Source: an uncultured Gemmatimonadales bacterium (GTDB lineage: Bacteria > Gemmatimonadota > Gemmatimonadetes > Gemmatimonadales > GWC2-71-9). From it: 64,000 nucleotides of DNA. The stretch spans positions 512,001-576,000 of the forward strand of contig CAWCFX010000006.1 in NCBI GenBank assembly GCA_963795085.1, given 5' to 3'. The position numbers are program-made. This document shows positions 31,401 to 49,400 of the stretch, piece after piece. The first letter of the stretch is position 1. Each line of letters starts with the position of its first letter.

Positions 31401-34400
31401 GGCGAAGCGGCCATCCTTGGTGAGTGCCACCCAGCACGCGGCCGTTTCGGTCGTCGCGGTCGCGGGCGAGACCCCGACCCAGCCTCCAGGACCGGAGCGG
31501 TAGCTGGACAGGACGCTCGCGTCGGCTGCGCCGCCGGCCGCCTCGGAGACCAGCAGGGCGCCGCCGGGAGCAAAGGCAAACCCGAACGGCGTGGGCGCCG
31601 CCGAGGGGGTCGTCACCGGGACGCCAAGAAGTCCCTGGGCATCCACGGGGAAAGTCACCAGGAGGTTGGTGGCTTTCTCGGTGACCACCAGGAACCGCCC
31701 GTTCGGCGAGAAGCTCGCCTGGGCCGCGTCGGGCGCAACACCGGAGAGCGCCCGCGCCGAGTTGGCGACAGGGTGAAGGGCACCGCCCACCCCGATCCGG
31801 AACCCGTTCACGCCCGGGGAAGCGCCATCGTGAAGGACGTATAGCAGGTTCCCATGCACCGCGATGGAAATGGGGAGATTTCCACCGGAAGACCAGGTCC
31901 CGATCCGGTCCAGGGTGGAGCCCTTGATCCGAAAGGCGGTGACCTGGTCGGAACCGGGATTAATGGCGAACAGCAAGCGGCGTCCTTCCACCAGCACCAG
32001 CCCTCCCTGGTTGCCCAGCCCGGTGCCGCTGCCCCGCCCCCCGGTGGAAAACCCGGCGGGCGCCGCCAGCGTTCCGTCCGGTGCGCGGGGAAAAGCGAGG
32101 ACGGCGTTATCGGTTGGGTCATTGCTGAGGACGTACACGGCGCCCGGTTCATCCGCCGCCGCGGCCGCAATGCCGAAGTCGGGGGAAACGAACGGCTCGG
32201 ACGGGCTATCGGAGCAGGCGGCCACCAGCAGCGAGGCGGGAAGCAACGCGAGCAGGATTCTTGGCATGAGGCATCTCCTGGGAAAGGTTGGTCTCAGGAA
32301 ACGCCACCAGGCACCGATCGGATCTTACAGCTCGAGGTGGGCCAGTTCCTTGCCGCGGGGAACCTCGATGGATCCGCCGGCTGGTTCCATGGTCAGGGCT
32401 CCGCCGCGGACGGCGCGGGCGCCGGGCGGCATGTCCAGCATCAGCACCGCCGGATTGCGTTCATCGCAGATGACCTCGGCGCCGTGCACCATGCCGTCCG
32501 CGGTGATGAACCAGAAGGTATAGCGCTCGCCGGCGGGCGCCGCGGGGATACCGTGGACCACCACTTTCCACCGGTGCGTCGTCTCGTCCGCGAAGATCAG
32601 CATGCCTCCCTGTTTGCCGTCCATGGTGATGGAAGCCTGGAGGATGCGTTCCGCCTGCAGCACCGACAGCGTGTCCCGGGCGGCGGCGAGGTCCCTTTCC
32701 AGCCGGTGGAGCTCCCCGCGCTGACGCAGCGCCGCGCCGGCGAGGGCCAGCGCGGCGAGCACGGCGGCGGCAAGCGCGGGAACCAGCCAGCGAGACCGGG
32801 CCGGGCGCCGGGTCACCTGGTGCACGACCTCGCTGGTAAACCCGGGGCGCGGGGTCACCGGGGTGACGCCCATGGGAAGCCAGGCCAGGTCGCGTTCGGC
32901 AGCGGCGACCGCGTCTCGGCAGTCACCGCAGTGCGCCAGATGCGCGTGGAACAGGCGCTCCTGTGCCGCGTCAAGGACCCGGGCGGCGAATTCGTCGCGG
33001 TGCTCGATATACCAGTCGTGGGTGCTCATACGACCCAGTCCTTGAGTTCCGCCAGGCTGCCACGCAACCGGTCGAGAGCCAGACGCAGGCGGGTCTTCAC
33101 GGTTCCCAGGGGGATCGCCAGCCGCTCCGCCACTTCGGAATGGGAATGCCCCTCGAAGTAGGCCAGCCGGAGCGCCTGCTGCTGCTCCGCCGGCAGCTCG
33201 GCGACCGCCGAGTGGACGGCGGTATGCACGTGCCAGCCGGGAAGCGCGGCCTCGTTGGGTTCCGCCGCCGCCGTGAAGGTTTCCTGGCTGGCGGTCACCC
33301 GCTCCCCCAGCGACCAGCGGCGGCGGCGGGCCCGGAGCCGGTCAATTGCCCGGTTGCGGGCCACCTGCACCAGCCAGGCGAGCAGGCCGCGGGGGCCGTG
33401 GTCCGGCGGCGGCACTTTCTCCCAGGCGATTCGAAAGGTCTCCAGCACGATGTCCTCGGCCTCATCGGCGTCCCCCAGCATGGCCTGCACGATCCCCAGC
33501 AGCCAGGGCGAGAGCAGCTGCACCAGCTCAGCCAGCGCCTGCTCGTCCCGTGCCGCGAGCCGGGCACGTAGATCGTCCTCCCTCGCGTCGGTGATCAGGC
33601 GGGGGGTTCCCCGGCCCGGCGGCGTGCCGGTTCCGGCCTGGGAGTGGCGGGTGGAAGCCATGGTCTGGCAAGGTAACGCCCCAGCCGGAGAGTTGGATCC
33701 CGGCAGGGGCGAAGCGCGCTGGTGTTGAGGCGGCTACGACGCCGCGGTCGGGGCCGGCGGCGCTCCGCGGGCAATCGCGAAGGCCTTCTGCATGTGAGGG
33801 GGCATTTCGTCCGACTCGGGTGGTTCGCCCGCCGCGTCCATGATCTGGGTGAGGTCCACCCGGTCGTACCCGCCCGACAGCAGCACCACGAACCGCTCCC
33901 GGAGCAACGGGATCTGGCGGGCCCGGCTGATGATGTTGTTGGCGTCCTTCCGCTCCAGAATGCCGTACCAGTTGTAGATCATCTTGAAAATCGAATACAT
34001 CGGGTGCTTGATCCGGCGCTCGTAGGGCGCCAGCAGCTCGGCCGAGAACCGGTCCTGGCGGAAGCAGTCGAGAATACACTCCGAGGCGTACACCCCCCCC
34101 CGCATGGCCAGGGTCACCCCGGCCGAGAAGATCGGGTCGATGAACATCGAAGCATCCCCCACCAGGACGAAGCCGTCCCCCACGAACCGCTCGTTCAGGT
34201 AGGAGATGTTGGAAATAGTCTGCATCTCCATGGTCTGCTCCGCGCCGGCGACCCATTCGCGTACCCGGTCGCAGCTGGCGACCGCCTTGTCATAGCGCTC
34301 CTGGGGGGTATCGCCCAGGCTCTTGGCGAACTTGGCATCGAGCACCACGCCGACACTGACCACGTCGTCGGCGAGCGGGATGTACCAGACCCAGCCGCCA

Positions 34401-46400: not shown

Positions 46401-49400
46401 CCGCGGGGGGTCGAACTGGTCCGATCGCTCAAGCAGAACAAGCTCAACCAGCGGGACCAGGCCGTGCTGCTGCGCGGGTACTATGAGAAAGTGGATAACA
46501 AGACCACACTGACCAGCCAGGTCTGGGAACTGGGACAGGGAACGCCCGAGGACATCCGGATCACCAGTACCCCGGCCTTCCGGGAACGCGCCGATTTCCT
46601 GGGCGGGGAGCTGGTGCCGTCGTCCCGGATCGTGTTCAAGAACGAGCAATTTGTCGCCAACCGCTGGGGCATGCACGACCAGGAGTACGAACGGGCCAAG
46701 CCGGCCGGCACCCACCGGACGGCGCTGCTGGGCCCTTCCGACGTGATGGGCCCGGGCGTGCTGGCGTCGGAAACCTTCGAGGCCCTGGCCGAGGCCCGTC
46801 TCAACCAGCACGGCGGTAAGTTCCAGCGCTACGAGATTCTCAATTTCGGGGTGGCCGCGTTCACCGTCCTCCAGCAGGCCGCCATGCTGGACGACCGGGG
46901 CCTCGGTTTCGACCCCGACCTGATCGTGATGACGTTCCACCCCGGGTCCGACCCGCCCACGACGCTGCGCTACCTGGTGGACGTCGTCCGGGCCGGCAGA
47001 CCGGTTCCCTACCCCGACCTCGCCGCTATCGTTCGGCGGGCCGGGATCGACAGCGGCATGACCGACGGCGTGGCCAAGCGGAAGACCTGGCCCCACATCC
47101 AGGAAATCATGCGCTGGAGCTTCCGGCATATTGCGGAAGCCGCGAAGTCCCGTAATATCCCGGTCGCGCTGCTGGTGACTGACGCCATCACCGAGCCATC
47201 GGCGCCGGACCAGCCGCTCATCCGCTACGCGGACAGCCTGGGCTTTACGATCCTGGACCTGCGCAGCGCGCACGTCGGGCACGAGCCCAGGACGGTAATC
47301 CTGGCCGAGAATGACCGGCATCCCAACAAGCTGGGCCACCGGCTCCTGGGCGAGGCGCTGTACCGCAAACTGATGGCACTCGGCGACACCCTGGGCCTGG
47401 GACTGGGCCCGCAACCATCGCAACTCAACCAGGAGGGGAAGTGACCAACGAAGAGATCATCCGGACGGTGAAGGAGTACATACTCCAGACCTTCCTTCCG
47501 GGCGAGGATCCCAAGGCGCTGACCGAAAGCACCCAGCTCATCACGGGCGGCGTGCTGGATTCCCTGGCCACGCTCGAGCTGGTGTCCTTCCTGGAACAAA
47601 AGTACGGCATCGAACTGCAGGCCCACGAGGTGGATGCCGCCAACCTCGGCACCCTGACCGCCATCGCCGGGCTGGTGCAGACCAAGGTGGGCGCCGGGAA
47701 GTGAGCGCCGCCACGCTGCACGCCCAGCTCGACGCCACGGTTCGGCGGTTCCCCGCGCGAACCGCGGTGGAGGATCCCGGCAAGGGGCAGTTGACCTATG
47801 CTGAACTGGGTGAGCTGTCGGACCGGCTCCGGGACCGGCTGGCGCTCCTCGGCGTGGAGCCGGGGGACCGGGTCGGACTGTACATGGCCAAGTCGCTGGA
47901 CGCGATCGTCACCATTTTCGGCGCCCTCAAGACGGGGGCGGCCTACGTGCCCGTGGATCCGGGCGCCCCGCCGGCCCGCTGCGCCTACATTCTCAACAAC
48001 TGCTCGGTCCGGGTCATCGTCACGGAGCGGCGGCTGAGCCAGGCTCTCACCGAGGAACTCCAGAAACTGGGAAGCGTCCCGCCCCTCCTGCTGCTGGACG
48101 ACGCGGCCGAGGCAAACCTCCCCGTTGCCGCGATGCTGGACCGGGAAGCCGGGACCCGCCCCGCGCCGGCGGCGGCCACCAGGGACCCCGGCCCCGACGG
48201 GCTGGCCTACATCCTGTACACTTCCGGATCCACCGGCAAACCCAAGGGCGTGATGCTCACGCACCGCTGCGCGGTGAGTTATGTCGACTGGTGTTCGGAC
48301 GTGTTCCAGCCCACGGAGGCAGACCGGTTCTCTTCGCACGCGCCGCTGCACTTCGACCTGTCCATCCTGGACCTCTACGTCCCCCTCAAGCACGGGGCCA
48401 CGCTGGTGCTGATCGGCGAGGAACTGGGCAAGGACCCGCTCAACCTCGCACCGTTGATCGCCGAGAAGCGAATCACCGTCTGGTATTCCACGCCCTCGAT
48501 CCTGAGCCTGCTGGCCCAGTACGGCAAGCTGTCCCGCTACGATTACTCGGCGCTGCGCTTTGTGTTCTTCGCCGGCGAAGTCTTCCCGGTGCCGCAGCTC
48601 CGCGCCCTCAAGGCACTGTGGCCGCATCCCCGGTACTTCAACCTGTACGGGCCCACCGAGACCAACGTGTGCACCTACTACGAGGTGCCCGCCGAGATCC
48701 CGGCCGGCCGCACCGAGCCGTTTCCGATCGGGAAGACGTGCGAGCACCTGGCCTGCCTGGTGATCGACCAGGACGGGAGCGTGGTGCCGAAAGGCGAGGA
48801 AGGCGAGCTGGTGGTGTGGGGACCCGGAGTCATGACCGGCTACTGGAACCTGGCGGAGCAGAACGCCGCCGCCTTCATCGAGATCGGCGGCAAGCGCTGG
48901 TACCACACGGGGGATCTGGTGGTCGAGGAGCCCAGCGGCGACTACATCTTCCACGGCCGCCGGGACCGGATGGTCAAGCGGCGGGGCTACCGGGTGGAAC
49001 TGGGCGAAATCGAAGCGGGCCTCGCCACCCATCCCCAGGCGAAAGAGGTGGCGGTGGTGGCGCTGCCGGACAAGGATGCCGGCGTCAAGATCCGGGCGTT
49101 TCTCTCGATCAAGGACGGCGTCAAGCCCAGCATCATCGAGATGAAGTCGTTCTCGATGGACAAACTGCCCAAGTACATGGTGCCCGATACCTTCTCGTTC
49201 CTCGAGGCGCTGCCCCGGACCTCGACCGACAAGATCGACTACCAGACGCTCAAGACTCTCTGACCGCCGGGCGGGGGACGGCCTACCGGTCGATCCACCG
49301 CTCTTCGCCCGCCAGCGCCCTCGGCCGTATCCAGAAATACCAGAGCCGGGGCGCCTTTTTCATCCGGTCCTTCAGGTCTTCCGCCACCTCGTGCACCCGG

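Follow-up and report, generated by a model that had tools for sequence, protein, structure and literature searches.

A conserved four-gene module predicted to carry a proline-derived group through a Dlt-like MBOAT-SGNH route in diderm bacteria

A 64,000-nucleotide stretch of an uncultured Gemmatimonadales genome (the window) contains a cassette encoding a stand-alone adenylating enzyme, a carrier protein, an acyl-CoA-dehydrogenase-fold flavoenzyme, and two paralogous MBOAT-SGNH fusion proteins (Table 1). From sequence comparison, structure prediction, and analogy, we read this cassette as a self-contained four-gene module for Dlt-like transmembrane acylation with a proline-derived group, here most likely onto a sulfated exopolysaccharide (probability about 0.6). 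The transferred group would be pyrrole-2-carboxyl or pyrroline-carboxyl, and the acceptor is probably a polysaccharide. By analogy, the route would be carrier-fed like Dlt, with a proline-derived group where Dlt uses D-alanine. To our knowledge, the only carrier-fed route described so far is that for D-alanine in the cell walls of Gram-positive bacteria, and a literature search found no description of such a proline-fed MBOAT-SGNH cassette. If the reading is true, carrier-fed transmembrane acylation with a proline-derived group occurs in many uncultured diderm bacteria. An initial annotation of this DNA had already proposed a Dlt-like, carrier-fed MBOAT-SGNH route; cassette conservation, the adenylase pocket, the kinship of the dehydrogenase, the Asp-Ser site of the carrier, and the invariant fusion residues all agree with it. 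The cassette genes and both halogenases that it listed are all in place, by Pfam matches and coordinates.

Table 1. Positions in the window of the cassette, its motifs, and the neighbouring genes
Feature	Position	Strand	Evidence
Flavin-dependent halogenase 1, 445 aa, carrier-protein-dependent type	33734-35071	-	Pfam, solved relatives
Flavin-dependent halogenase 2, ~459 aa, start approximate	35121-36500	-	Pfam, solved relatives
AlgE-like outer-membrane beta-barrel, start uncertain	36491-37950	-	Pfam Alginate_exp
ABC importer, nitrate/sulfonate/taurine type	37954-40488	-	Pfam, NCBIfam
ABC ATPase	37954-38793	-	Pfam, NCBIfam
ABC permease	38783-39529	-	Pfam, NCBIfam
NMT1/SsuA-like binding protein	39526-40488	-	Pfam, NCBIfam
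Prolyl-carrier-protein-type dehydrogenase, acyl-CoA-dehydrogenase-fold flavoenzyme, 382 aa	41049-42197	+	Pfam, NCBIfam, solved relatives
MBOAT-SGNH fusion 1, 834 aa	42398-44902	+	Full-length model, structural matches, invariant residues
G523-Y524-Y525-E526 codons of fusion 1, candidate acyl-shuttle tyrosine motif	43964-43975	+	Conservation, low-confidence loop
MBOAT-SGNH fusion 2, 836 aa, paralog of fusion 1	44934-47444	+	43% identity to fusion 1, invariant residues
G515-Y516-Y517-E518 motif of fusion 2	46476-46487	+	
Carrier protein, 87 aa	47441-47704	+	Pfam PP-binding
Ser41 codon, phosphopantetheine-site serine of carrier protein	47561-47563	+	
Stand-alone adenylating enzyme, 520 aa, predicted L-proline-specific	47701-49263	+	NCBIfam, PltF pocket match
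Sulfotransferase	49283-50257	-	Pfam
Family-2 glycosyltransferase	50254-51162	-	Pfam
GMC oxidoreductase	51245-52846	-	Pfam

Adenylase, carrier protein, dehydrogenase, and MBOAT-SGNH fusion form a conserved module. Of 79 related loci, 53 have the dehydrogenase gene in the cassette; there it lies, together with the carrier and adenylase genes, at most 8 kb from the fusion gene. This co-occurrence of four families, across many phyla and in several gene orders, exceeds chance. Where at least 5.5 kb was available on both flanks, the partner trio was complete in 26 of 31 loci; it was incomplete in the other five, three of which had no partner at all. By their record titles, the loci span at least 10 phylum- or class-level groups (Gemmatimonadota, Acidobacteriota, Alpha-, Beta-, Gamma-, and ‘delta’-proteobacteria, Myxococcota, Rhodothermales, Calditrichaceae, Nitrospiraceae, Hydrogenedentota, and Methylomirabilota). 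Although the gene order is shuffled among the 79 loci, the genes keep to a single strand in all but one case, and the conserved set was found to hold no other transferase, condensation domain, or thioesterase. In the window, the genes for fusion 2 and the carrier overlap by 4 bases (47441-47444), as do those for the carrier and the adenylase. About half of the loci examined place the cassette amid unrelated housekeeping genes, and the module is therefore self-contained; its distribution within the phylum is patchy (16 of 301 genomes, 10 of 128 genera).

The adenylase is predicted to be specific for L-proline. It matched Pfam AMP-binding and AMP-binding_C and the NCBIfam amino-acid adenylation domain (378.8 bits; cut-off, 317.4), and its top stand-alone solved relative was the proline ligase PltF (6o6e, 334.7 bits), with DltA entries at 194-226 bits. 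Over the pocket region alone, PltF (179 bits) stood ahead of the next chain (143 bits). In a residue-by-residue alignment, the two enzymes had FDLSxL, WYSxPS, [FL]FAGE, and NL[YF]GPTETNVC in common, and the window adenylase read DLLYFALVC-K against DLLYLALVC in PltF (eight of nine positions the same). The PltF-identical pocket DLLYLALVCK (9/9) was present in 30 of 52 cassette adenylases, and all 52 readings began with DL. The pocket match bears out the earlier assignment to the proline-[prolyl-carrier] ligase type and suggests that the enzyme loads L-proline on Ser41 of the carrier. The carrier itself matched Pfam PP-binding (21.1 bits; cut-off, 20.8), its top NCBIfam row being ACP_for_OlsHI at 98.7 bits, under the cut-off of 130. 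D40 and S41 were invariant in 64 cassette carrier proteins, in keeping with the phosphopantetheine carrier first annotated here.

The flavoenzyme, with three Acyl-CoA_dh domains in Pfam, sits by sequence among prolyl-carrier dehydrogenases, the type to which it had been assigned. Its top NCBIfam rows were PigA (455 bits; cut-off, 500) and RedW (422 bits; cut-off, 650), both under cut-off. The best solved relative was 4irn, ‘Prolyl-ACP dehydrogenase’ (AnaB, 469 bits), followed by 6cxt (340 bits) and the prolyl-PCP dehydrogenase 5zw0 (330 bits), so that two of the top three were deposited as prolyl-carrier dehydrogenases; generic acyl-CoA dehydrogenases reached at most 297 bits. AnaB carries out a two-electron oxidation and stops at the pyrroline, whereas PltE, RedW, and PigA catalyze a four-electron oxidation to the pyrrole. 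The sequence fits either outcome alike, and a pyrrole product is not assured, because AnaB is the nearest solved relative.

The fusion proteins had been annotated as long membrane proteins outside any family, with weak Lipase_GDSL_2 matches, and our Pfam search gave the same picture: sub-threshold Lipase_GDSL_2 matches and no MBOAT match at E 0.01 for either protein. A PDB sequence search with a profile of 44 family members likewise found no MBOAT chain, and it is by predicted fold alone that the N-terminal region is assigned as an MBOAT. A new full-length model of fusion 1 (pLDDT 88.0, pTM 0.84; residues 521-546 below 50) matched DltB best (8jem_B, Z 21.7, rmsd 4.3, 359 aligned; 6bug_C, Z 21.1), then PORCN, HHAT, LPCAT3, and MBOAT7. 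With 8jem_B, the alignment ran end to end (model 47-427, chain 10-414). The model thus has the whole DltB fold (residues 47-427) plus two extra membrane helices (434-451 and 473-493), then a flexible loop with the GYYE motif, and finally a beta-sandwich and an SGNH domain (545-834). This last part aligned with CgnD (8a2n; model 545-826, Z 21.1) and, from residue 561, with the carbohydrate esterases 7toh and 9kr1, in which a beta-sandwich also precedes the SGNH domain. Modeled separately (pLDDT 91.7), the C-terminal domain gave Foldseek matches that, as listed, were all SGNH/GDSL-type esterases or lipases except for one designed scaffold; the closest folds were esterases and thioesterases such as TesA, EstA, and GDSL lipases. 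Homology suggests that this domain lies outside.

Nine residues (H265, H342, Y524, Y525, E526, G612, S614, N649, and H808; fusion 1 numbering) were invariant in 44 sequences, and in 86 sequences all were 100% conserved except E526 (99%). G523 and E526 were kept in 98-99% of the 86, with both tyrosines invariant, and the GYYE motif falls inside the sole long low-confidence loop (pLDDT <50) separating the two domains. In the alignment with solved GDSL enzymes, Ser614, Asn649, and His808 match blocks I, III, and V, and the SGNH Asp is one residue nearer the His (D-x-H) than in those enzymes. Fusion 2, a paralog as first reported (43% identity over residues 18-827), shares the invariant residues in the family alignment. 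The previously counted 3365 homologues were recovered (E ≤ 1e-20, 8000 candidates scored); in NCBI they go by the name ‘hypothetical protein’, and among 120 listed JGI names are ‘hypothetical protein’, ‘DltB (MBOAT superfamily)’, and, once, ‘AlgI’.

We compared the fusions with known MBOAT/SGNH systems as described in one account (PMC12148441). There, two helices after the DltB-like core are the arrangement of MBOATs carrying their own shuttle tyrosine, and the fusion shows this PatA/AlgI-type layout: it carries a tyrosine motif itself, and there is no DltX-like microprotein beside it. Its motif, G-Y-Y-E-x-L, agrees only in part with the published shuttle motif FxYxxF. The same text states that MBOAT/SGNH pathways besides Dlt have no carrier protein, and this, with the layout and the single AlgI name, would suit fusions working as ordinary O-acetyltransferases of the AlgI/PatA kind, fed by acetyl-CoA and merely co-located with a trio making an unrelated product. 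We regard such a coincidence as very improbable: it leaves unexplained why the four families travel together on one strand across phyla and gene orders, why the window genes overlap, and which enzyme of the conserved set, having no other candidate, would offload the trio's product.

In the mechanism we propose, the adenylase would activate L-proline and load the carrier, and the flavoenzyme, judging by its family, would oxidize the tethered prolyl group to pyrrole-2-carboxyl-S-carrier or 1-pyrroline-5-carboxyl-S-carrier. By analogy with DltB/DltX/DltD and PatA/PatB, the loaded carrier would dock on the MBOAT domain from the cytoplasmic side, and an invariant histidine would pass the acyl group to Y524 or Y525 on the flexible loop. 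Because two extra membrane helices precede this loop, it is predicted to lie on the outer face. Ser614 would then take the acyl group from the tyrosine ester and hand it to an acceptor outside the cytoplasm, at a hydroxyl or amino group. The likeliest acceptor in this genome is the sulfated exopolysaccharide of the exosortase locus around the cassette; in other genomes it would be a glycan or some other part of the envelope whose genes lie elsewhere.

The last step could instead be hydrolysis. The fusion would then act as a transmembrane thioesterase: the MBOAT would move the carrier-bound (halo)pyrrole-carboxyl group across the membrane, and the SGNH domain would hydrolyze the tyrosine or serine ester. 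What reached the periplasm, as a signal or toxin, would be free pyrrole-2-carboxylate, possibly halogenated, or one of its small esters. Halogenated pyrroles are known small bioactive molecules, the nearest folds of the C-terminal domain are those of esterases and thioesterases, and without a thioesterase in the conserved set, release would have to fall to the fusion; the cassette also often stands alone amid housekeeping genes, with no glycan genes near in 7 of 14 loci. We nevertheless consider release quite unlikely, since the beta-sandwich recalls carbohydrate esterases, the cassette lies amid glycan genes both here and in the three closest relatives, and a cytoplasmic thioesterase with a pump would export a small acid more simply. 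Moreover, all the characterized bacterial MBOAT/SGNH pairs named in the account cited, Dlt and PatAB, are transferases onto polymers, teichoic acids and peptidoglycan, respectively (PMC12148441).

The surroundings of the cassette bear on the acceptor. The window represents an exosortase/polysaccharide locus that includes genes for PAPS synthesis and a sulfotransferase. The sulfotransferase, glycosyltransferase, and GMC oxidoreductase genes also follow the cassette in two of the closest relatives (L001 and L003), and the contig of the third (L002) ends inside the sulfotransferase gene. These neighbors, kept in the closest relatives, point to a glycan, and sugar-modifying or glycosyltransferase genes occur within ~5 kb in 6 of 14 other loci examined. 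Against this, the same mechanism might serve a general envelope molecule (lipopolysaccharide/lipid A, peptidoglycan, a periplasmic glucan, or a membrane lipid head group). The self-contained module, its unrelated contexts in the 7 loci lacking a nearby glycan gene, and its patchy presence within one phylum yet spread over many would suit an acceptor that most diderms already have, and PatAB and Dlt offer precedents. Given the polysaccharide locus here and the glycan genes elsewhere, we think this acceptor unlikely. The initially annotated alginate-type exporter gene near the halogenases was recovered (Alginate_exp, 68 bits on ORF 36491-38149); a homologue lies between halogenases and dehydrogenase in only 2 of 79 loci (L003 and L056), and the barrel is only possibly part of the system. 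The ABC permease and binding protein had no matches in the 79 loci and the ATPase four remote, weak ones; transporter and porin are probably local neighbors outside the system.

Both flavin-dependent halogenases annotated on the opposite strand (33734-36500) matched Trp_halogenase, halogenase 1 with 127 bits and halogenase 2 with 86 bits (ORF 35121-37034). The solved relatives of halogenase 1 were 8zop (221 bits), 3e1t (203), ChlB4 (183), PltA (5dbj, 180), and 5buk, 5bva, and CmlS (~166 each); 8zop and 3e1t outscore PltA, and the nearest relatives are thus not specifically pyrrole halogenases. Its motifs are GGGPGG, WVWYIP, and FIDPIFSAG. Halogenase 2 (31% identical to halogenase 1, 135/433 aligned positions) has WAWHII in place of WVWYIP, and its solved relatives were 3e1t (161 bits), CmlS (159), 5buk (135), and PltA (125). 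Orthologues of halogenase 1 (68-74% identity) adjoin the cassette in L001, L002, L003, L020, L026, and L030, and relatives of halogenase 2 (58-62%) are found in L056. The linkage first given, one of four relatives, was too low: halogenases occur in 12 of 79 loci (absent from 67), five of them distant (titled Acidobacteria, Gemmatimonadales, Anaerolineales, Calditrichaceae, and Longimicrobiales), with the gene in or beside the operon and the WxWxIP motif in all five. In this lineage and some others, one or two halogenases may act on the tethered ring, which would favor the aromatic pyrrole where they occur.

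The best explanation of the five-gene cassette in the window is Dlt-like transmembrane acylation with a proline-derived acyl group. The cassette encodes a dehydrogenase, two paralogous MBOAT-SGNH membrane proteins (fusion 1 and fusion 2), a carrier protein, and an adenylase; the dehydrogenase, carrier protein, and adenylase are referred to below as the trio. Coding frames in the window, which has a G+C content of ∼67%, were chosen by third-position G+C, and the resulting coordinates reveal 4-base overlaps that link the genes for fusion 2, the carrier protein, and the adenylase. 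Pfam and NCBIfam agreed with each family assignment made in the initial annotation and, as that annotation had also noted, gave no above-cut-off family row for either long membrane protein. Among nine listed sequencing runs, none was an RNA dataset containing this DNA, and the best DNA run shared 0.21 of the sampled words. No RNA family reached its gathering score within 33000-50500, and scans of 40300-49500 for promoters (1 promoter-like site vs. 0.9 expected) and terminators (7 terminator-like sites vs. 4.1 ± 2.1 expected) were uninformative.

Features of the window, in window coordinates
Feature	Position	Strand	Remarks
Exosortase system genes	5-9860		sigma-54 response regulator, GNVR chain-length kinase, SLBB export protein, Bac_transf priming transferase
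Exosortase system, further genes	5-9860		EpsH exosortase, DUF3485 (EpsI-like), family-2 glycosyltransferase
Six tandem Sulfatase-domain paralogs	13658-26264	+	
PMT_2-type glycosyltransferase	18860-20728		
PAPS-synthesis set	26261-30395	+	
ECF sigma factor and RskA-type anti-sigma factor	32325-33661	-	
Two flavin-dependent halogenases, AlgE-like porin, three-gene ABC importer	within 33734-40488	-	Pfam/NCBIfam
ABC importer, nitrate/sulfonate/taurine family	37954-40488	-	between porin and cassette
Acyl-CoA-dehydrogenase-fold enzyme (dehydrogenase)	41049-42197	+	
Two long membrane proteins (fusion 1, fusion 2)	42398-44902 and 44934-47444	+	
Carrier protein	47441-47704	+	87 aa
Adenylating enzyme (adenylase)	47701-49263	+	
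Sulfotransferase	49283-50257	-	

We scanned one genome per species, obtained 197 stretches with a relative of fusion 1, and retained 79 loci, in which partner genes were sought by tblastn with the window proteins and counted up to 8 kb from the fusion gene. Carrier protein, adenylase, and dehydrogenase were all found in 53 of the 79 loci and at least one of them in 66; many of the loci without all three are short contigs. Where at least 5.5 kb was available on both sides (31 loci), all three partners were present in 26, at least one in 28, and none in 3. Two of these last three (L035 and L078) are not clear counter-examples: they come from the same assembly, and several assemblies hold extra fusion paralogs. 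The record titles of the loci name Gemmatimonadota, Acidobacteriota, Alpha-, Beta-, Gamma-, and “delta”-proteobacteria, Myxococcota, Rhodothermales, Calditrichaceae, Nitrospiraceae, Hydrogenedentota, and Methylomirabilota. With one exception among the loci, the cassette genes share a strand. Their order is variable, the commonest being fusion, carrier, adenylase, dehydrogenase (these counts exclude fusion matches below 40% identity, so that the fusion gene is undercounted), and the order in the window (dehydrogenase, fusion, fusion, carrier, adenylase) is common to its closest relatives, L001-L003.

The fusion family has at least 3365 members; among the 120 homologues listed, none carried a curated name, all being unnamed or named by COG transfer alone. 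Its distribution in Gemmatimonadota is patchy (16 of 301 sampled genomes and 10 of 128 genera, the window’s genome included), and that genome (3.9 Mb, 93% complete) contains these two copies only. Of the neighboring genes on the other strand, the porin had a tblastn homologue in two of the 79 loci only (L003 and L056). The ABC importer was rejected as a part of the system because its permease and binding protein had no tblastn counterpart in any of the 79.

The adenylase is closer to the pyoluteorin-pathway proline ligase PltF (6o6e; 334.7 bits), its best stand-alone solved relative, than to the DltA entries (194-226 bits). A multidomain gramicidin synthase outscores PltF solely through summed domains; when the pocket region alone was used, PltF came first at 179 bits and the next chain reached 143. 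The adenylase and PltF have the pocket motifs FDLS[IV]L, WYS[TV]PS, [FL]FAGE, and NL[YF]GPTETNVC in common. Pocket columns were picked by GrsA-PheA numbering, which we take to mark the specificity-conferring residues; there, the window enzyme reads DLLYFALVCK and PltF DLLYLALVC, with identity at 8 of 9 positions in the 6o6e alignment. Across 52 cassette adenylases, 30 read DLLYLALVCK, equal to PltF at 9 of 9 positions, and the remaining 22 differ at one or two positions, save one with a gap. The NCBIfam DltA equivalog scored 273 bits against a cut-off of 560. On this sequence evidence, the predicted substrate is L-proline and not D-alanine.

The best solved relative of the dehydrogenase is 4irn, deposited as “Prolyl-ACP dehydrogenase” (469 bits), followed by 6cxt (340 bits) and 5zw0, an “L-prolyl-[peptidyl-carrier protein] dehydrogenase” (330 bits); generic acyl-CoA dehydrogenases score below all three, at 297 bits or less. 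It differs from PigA and RedW, the top two of its 22 NCBIfam rows, in falling short of their curated cut-offs (454.9 bits against 500 and 421.9 against 650, respectively). By these scores, the enzyme is a relative, and not a curated equivalog, of the PigA/RedW/PltE/AnaB class. We take 4irn to be AnaB of anatoxin-a synthesis, and AnaB oxidation halts at the pyrroline; 6cxt is presumably a pyrrole-forming oxidase complexed with its own carrier protein. On these two precedents, the dehydrogenase would yield either a pyrroline or a pyrrole.

In the carrier protein, the Asp-Ser pair that includes the phosphopantetheine-site serine (Ser41) is invariant in 64 sequences. The DltC equivalog of NCBIfam scored 24.5 bits against a cut-off of 68, and the best NCBIfam row, an ornithine-lipid ACP, was likewise under its cut-off. 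The OlsH/OlsI ornithine-lipid pathway, as outlined in PMC12493201, employs a GH3-like enzyme and an alpha/beta hydrolase; both are absent from the cassette, and an OlsH/OlsI-type role was therefore dropped.

Carrier-protein-dependent flavin halogenases are marked by GxGxxG, WxWxIP, FxDPxxSxG, and a short C-terminus. Halogenase 1 (445 aa) contains the flavin motif GGGPGG, WVWYIP, and FIDPIFSAG, and its solved relatives (8zop, 3e1t, ChlB4, PltA, 5buk, 5bva, and CmlS) are carrier-protein-dependent or close to such enzymes; its sequence thus predicts a halogenase of the carrier-protein-dependent PltA and CndH type. Halogenase 2 shares 31% identity with halogenase 1, and where the latter shows WVWYIP (WxWxIP), its sequence is WAWHII. 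A halogenase gene lies within 8 kb of the fusion gene in 12 of the 79 loci. Seven of these are Gemmatimonadota relatives with at least 55% identity, all with two or more fusion paralogs; the other five (L004, L027, L049, L060, and L077) are distant, with a gene 31-35% identical that stands in or beside the operon and has the WxWxIP motif. This recurrent recruitment in unrelated lineages supports, but does not prove, the view that the carrier-bound intermediate is an aromatic pyrrole in loci with halogenases. The strand of halogenase 1 continues directly downstream with the genes for an ECF sigma factor and an RskA-type anti-sigma factor, a pair that may regulate the halogenase operon.

The full-length model of fusion 1, built from 44 rows, had a pLDDT of 88.0 and a pTM of 0.84. 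Its best N-terminal structural match, end to end, was DltB 8jem_B (Z 21.7, rmsd 4.3, 359 aligned; model 47-427, chain 10-414); DltB 6bug_C gave Z 21.1, and PORCN, HHAT, LPCAT3, and MBOAT7 gave Z 17.4-18.9. The N-terminal part is accordingly modeled as a DltB-like MBOAT fold, in which membrane helices ring a central funnel. Neither paralog has a Pfam MBOAT row at E ≤ 0.01, a profile of 44 members found no MBOAT chain in the PDB by sequence and weak SGNH matches only, and no precomputed MBOAT domain was present among the 120 homologues listed. Residues H265, H342, Y524, Y525, G612, S614, N649, and H808 are invariant in the fusion family (86 full-length sequences; alignment of 44), with H265 and H342 as candidates for the catalytic histidine of MBOATs; E526 is invariant in the 44 sequences and 99% conserved in the 86, D806 is 99% conserved, and G523 is nearly invariant. 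Beyond the DltB-like core, the model continues with helices 434-451 and 473-493, then short helices, and then a loop (521-546; pLDDT <50) that holds the Tyr-Tyr motif. A hydropathy scan for topology gave overlapping, ambiguous segments, and the model helices were used instead. By analogy with the layout in PMC12148441, both the loop and the SGNH domain are predicted to lie on the periplasmic side of the membrane.

The C-terminal end of the model consists of a beta-sandwich and then the SGNH domain. CgnD 8a2n was the best match to this part (Z 21.1, model 545-826), and TesA, EstA, and acetyl-xylan esterases followed with Z 14-16 (VIA-align). Modeled alone from 85 rows, the C-terminal domain had a pLDDT of 91.7 and gave 114 Foldseek matches at E ≤ 0.001; the rows listed were GDSL/SGNH esterases, save one designed scaffold. 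An SGNH fold is thus predicted for this domain. SGNH blocks I, III, and V correspond to G612-x-S614, N649, and H808, whose Ser, Asn, and His align with the GDS, N, and HPN of 9otv, and the block V Asp is offset by one position to give D-x-H (HMMER alignments). Pfam Lipase_GDSL_2 scored 22.6 bits against a cut-off of 32.9. In the ESM Atlas, the clusters nearest to the fusion are unnamed, and a cluster of Bacillota proteins of ∼805 aa, no more than a lead at a score of 0.77, joins MBOAT with the DHHW and ALGX families. Other, acetyl-type systems may therefore also contain MBOATs fused to SGNH-like domains.

The conserved set in the related loci, as searched by tblastn, contains no condensation domain, thioesterase, or soluble acyltransferase, and the fusion is therefore the sole candidate for unloading the carrier protein. 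A complex prediction of the carrier protein with residues 17-500 of fusion 1 scored 0.59, with a verdict of “weak support” (best of three controls, 0.00); its runs share at least 90% of contacts, and partner pLDDT is 82 or higher. Of 157 solved complexes, 116 reached the mark, as did 2 of 215 mismatched pairs, and passes at 0.60 or below comprised 18 of the 157 solved complexes plus both mismatched pairs that passed. Because a DltB-DltC complex has reportedly been solved, this pass may reflect likeness alone, and it was not counted as evidence.

In the Dlt pathway (DltA, DltC, DltB, DltX, and DltD), the MBOAT takes the acyl group from the carrier protein, a tyrosine supplied by the microprotein DltX shuttles it to the SGNH protein, and transfer takes place outside the cytoplasm (PMC12148441). 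Dlt is so far the only carrier-protein-fed MBOAT/SGNH pathway described; according to this 2025 mechanistic paper, the others have no carrier protein and separate MBOAT and SGNH proteins. As in Dlt, the adenylase of the cassette would charge a small carrier protein with an amino acid, but this is predicted to be L-proline instead of D-alanine, and the cassette differs further by a flavin dehydrogenase step, which would be obligatory, and by the halogenases of some lineages. Moreover, the candidate shuttle tyrosine is found in the same chain behind two extra helices rather than on DltX, MBOAT and SGNH form a single polypeptide, and the host bacteria are diderm and lack teichoic acids. The cassette is Dlt-like in its predicted working and lies outside Dlt by substrate, acceptor, and family scores.

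In acetyl-CoA-fed MBOATs, two helices beyond the DltB core carry an FxYxxF tyrosine, and this residue ferries the acyl group to an SGNH partner on another chain (PMC12148441). The same text shows PatA/PatB and AlgI with AlgJ/AlgX to resemble the predicted layout of the cassette in having an MBOAT core with two more helices, its own shuttle tyrosine, and an SGNH partner in the diderm periplasm, but it describes an acyl-CoA donor and no carrier protein for them (PMC12148441). MBOAT and SGNH are separate proteins there, and the FxYxxF motif stands at the very C-terminus, whereas the G-Y-Y-E-x-L motif of the fusion lies in the interdomain loop, with the Tyr and the hydrophobic last position kept and the first Phe absent. 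Unlike acetyl-CoA-fed MBOATs, the fusion family is missed by the Pfam MBOAT family. Its architecture is of the PatA/AlgI type, but its donor would be a carrier protein. As predicted for the fusion, AT3-SGNH proteins (OatA and O-antigen acetyltransferases) unite in one polypeptide a membrane domain for acyl transfer, a tyrosine shuttle, and an SGNH domain outside the cytoplasm (PMC12148441); in contrast to the fusion, their membrane domain is an acyltransferase-3 and their donor is acetyl-CoA, not a carrier protein.

The trio resembles PltF/PltL/PltE/PltA (pyoluteorin), RedM/RedO/RedW, PigI/PigG/PigA, and AnaC/AnaD/AnaB (anatoxin-a), with which it has in common a stand-alone adenylase for proline (predicted for the trio), a carrier protein, an acyl-CoA-dehydrogenase-type oxidase, and, optionally, a carrier-dependent flavin halogenase; the adenylase pocket is identical or nearly identical to that of PltF, and the dehydrogenase is nearest to AnaB, PigA, and RedW. 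In thiotemplated pyrrole pathways, a cytoplasmic ketosynthase, polyketide synthase, or soluble acyltransferase receives the product, whereas the sole conserved downstream enzyme in the cassette is the membrane MBOAT-SGNH fusion. The cytoplasmic half of the cassette is, in this comparison, a pyrrole-type thiotemplate cassette without the usual cytoplasmic partners.

The entire window is a polysaccharide locus, in which several glycosyltransferases are also encoded. A complete PAPS-synthesis set (a CysN-CysC-like fusion, a CysQ-like phosphatase fused to APS kinase, and a CysD-like gene) and the sulfotransferase together suggest that the locus product is a sulfated exopolysaccharide. Genes for a sulfotransferase, a glycosyltransferase, and a GMC oxidoreductase come after the cassette both in the window and in L001-L003, although the contig of L002 stops within the sulfotransferase gene. 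We Pfam-scanned 88 flanking ORFs from 14 further loci chosen among those with long flanks. Six (L005, L007, L013, L021, L043, and L052) have glycan-related genes near the cassette, encoding glycosyltransferases, sugar aminotransferases, priming transferases, polysaccharide deacetylases, or nucleotide-sugar enzymes; one (L011) has TPR-sulfatase genes; and seven have unrelated genes only. Given the neighboring glycan genes, the acceptor in the window’s system is most likely a glycan. The cassette itself is a portable module.

A bolder version of Dlt-like acylation, to which we give roughly three chances in ten, is that bacteria of at least 10 phylum- or class-level groups attach pyrrole-2-carboxylate as an ester to a polymer of the cell surface and that this Gemmatimonadota lineage chlorinates or brominates the pyrrole-2-carboxylate beforehand. 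If true, bacterial envelope glycans would have here their first example of a heteroaromatic decoration and also of an enzymatically halogenated one; the fusion, with MBOAT, tyrosine shuttle, and SGNH on a single chain, would represent a third transmembrane acyltransferase architecture, one that accepts a carrier-protein thioester; and thiotemplated “natural-product” chemistry would serve cell-envelope construction directly. 

None of the titles and abstracts listed in full-text searches of open-access literature describes an MBOAT that receives its acyl group from a prolyl or pyrrolyl carrier protein. The cassette would be a second MBOAT/SGNH pathway fed by a carrier, set apart by its amino acid, by oxidation on the carrier, and by the fusion of its enzyme. 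In that fusion, one chain would unite the donor and acceptor sites with the shuttle tyrosine, and the tyrosine relay could be studied within one protein. The cassette also hints that uncultured bacteria abundant in soil and water carry an unrecognized, possibly halogenated, decoration on their envelopes or matrices. For genome mining, a PltF/PltL/PltE-like trio need not mean a small-molecule pathway every time.

The exosortase polysaccharide locus also holds six tandem paralogs of ∼600-700 aa. They are membrane proteins, each with an N-terminal region of ∼170-280 residues and then a Sulfatase-family domain, and the PMT_2-type glycosyltransferase is a seventh gene interleaved among them. These paralogs could be transferases of the LtaS/EptA kind rather than sulfatases.

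Some cassettes have two or three fusion paralogs (L056, with three at 5596-13610, and L008, L020, L030, L044, and L058). In L008, each of two fusion genes is followed by its own carrier-protein gene, with the dehydrogenase gene after the first pair and, behind the second, an adenylase gene that the contig end truncates. Acceptors, or acyl groups (halogenated vs. plain), may differ between the paralogs. In L005 (2-9866), from an unclassified MAG, two very large ORFs with adenylation-domain matches lie upstream of the cassette, together with genes for a phosphopantetheinyl transferase, a family-2 glycosyltransferase, and an S9-type hydrolase, a context that may be a link to a nonribosomal peptide pathway.
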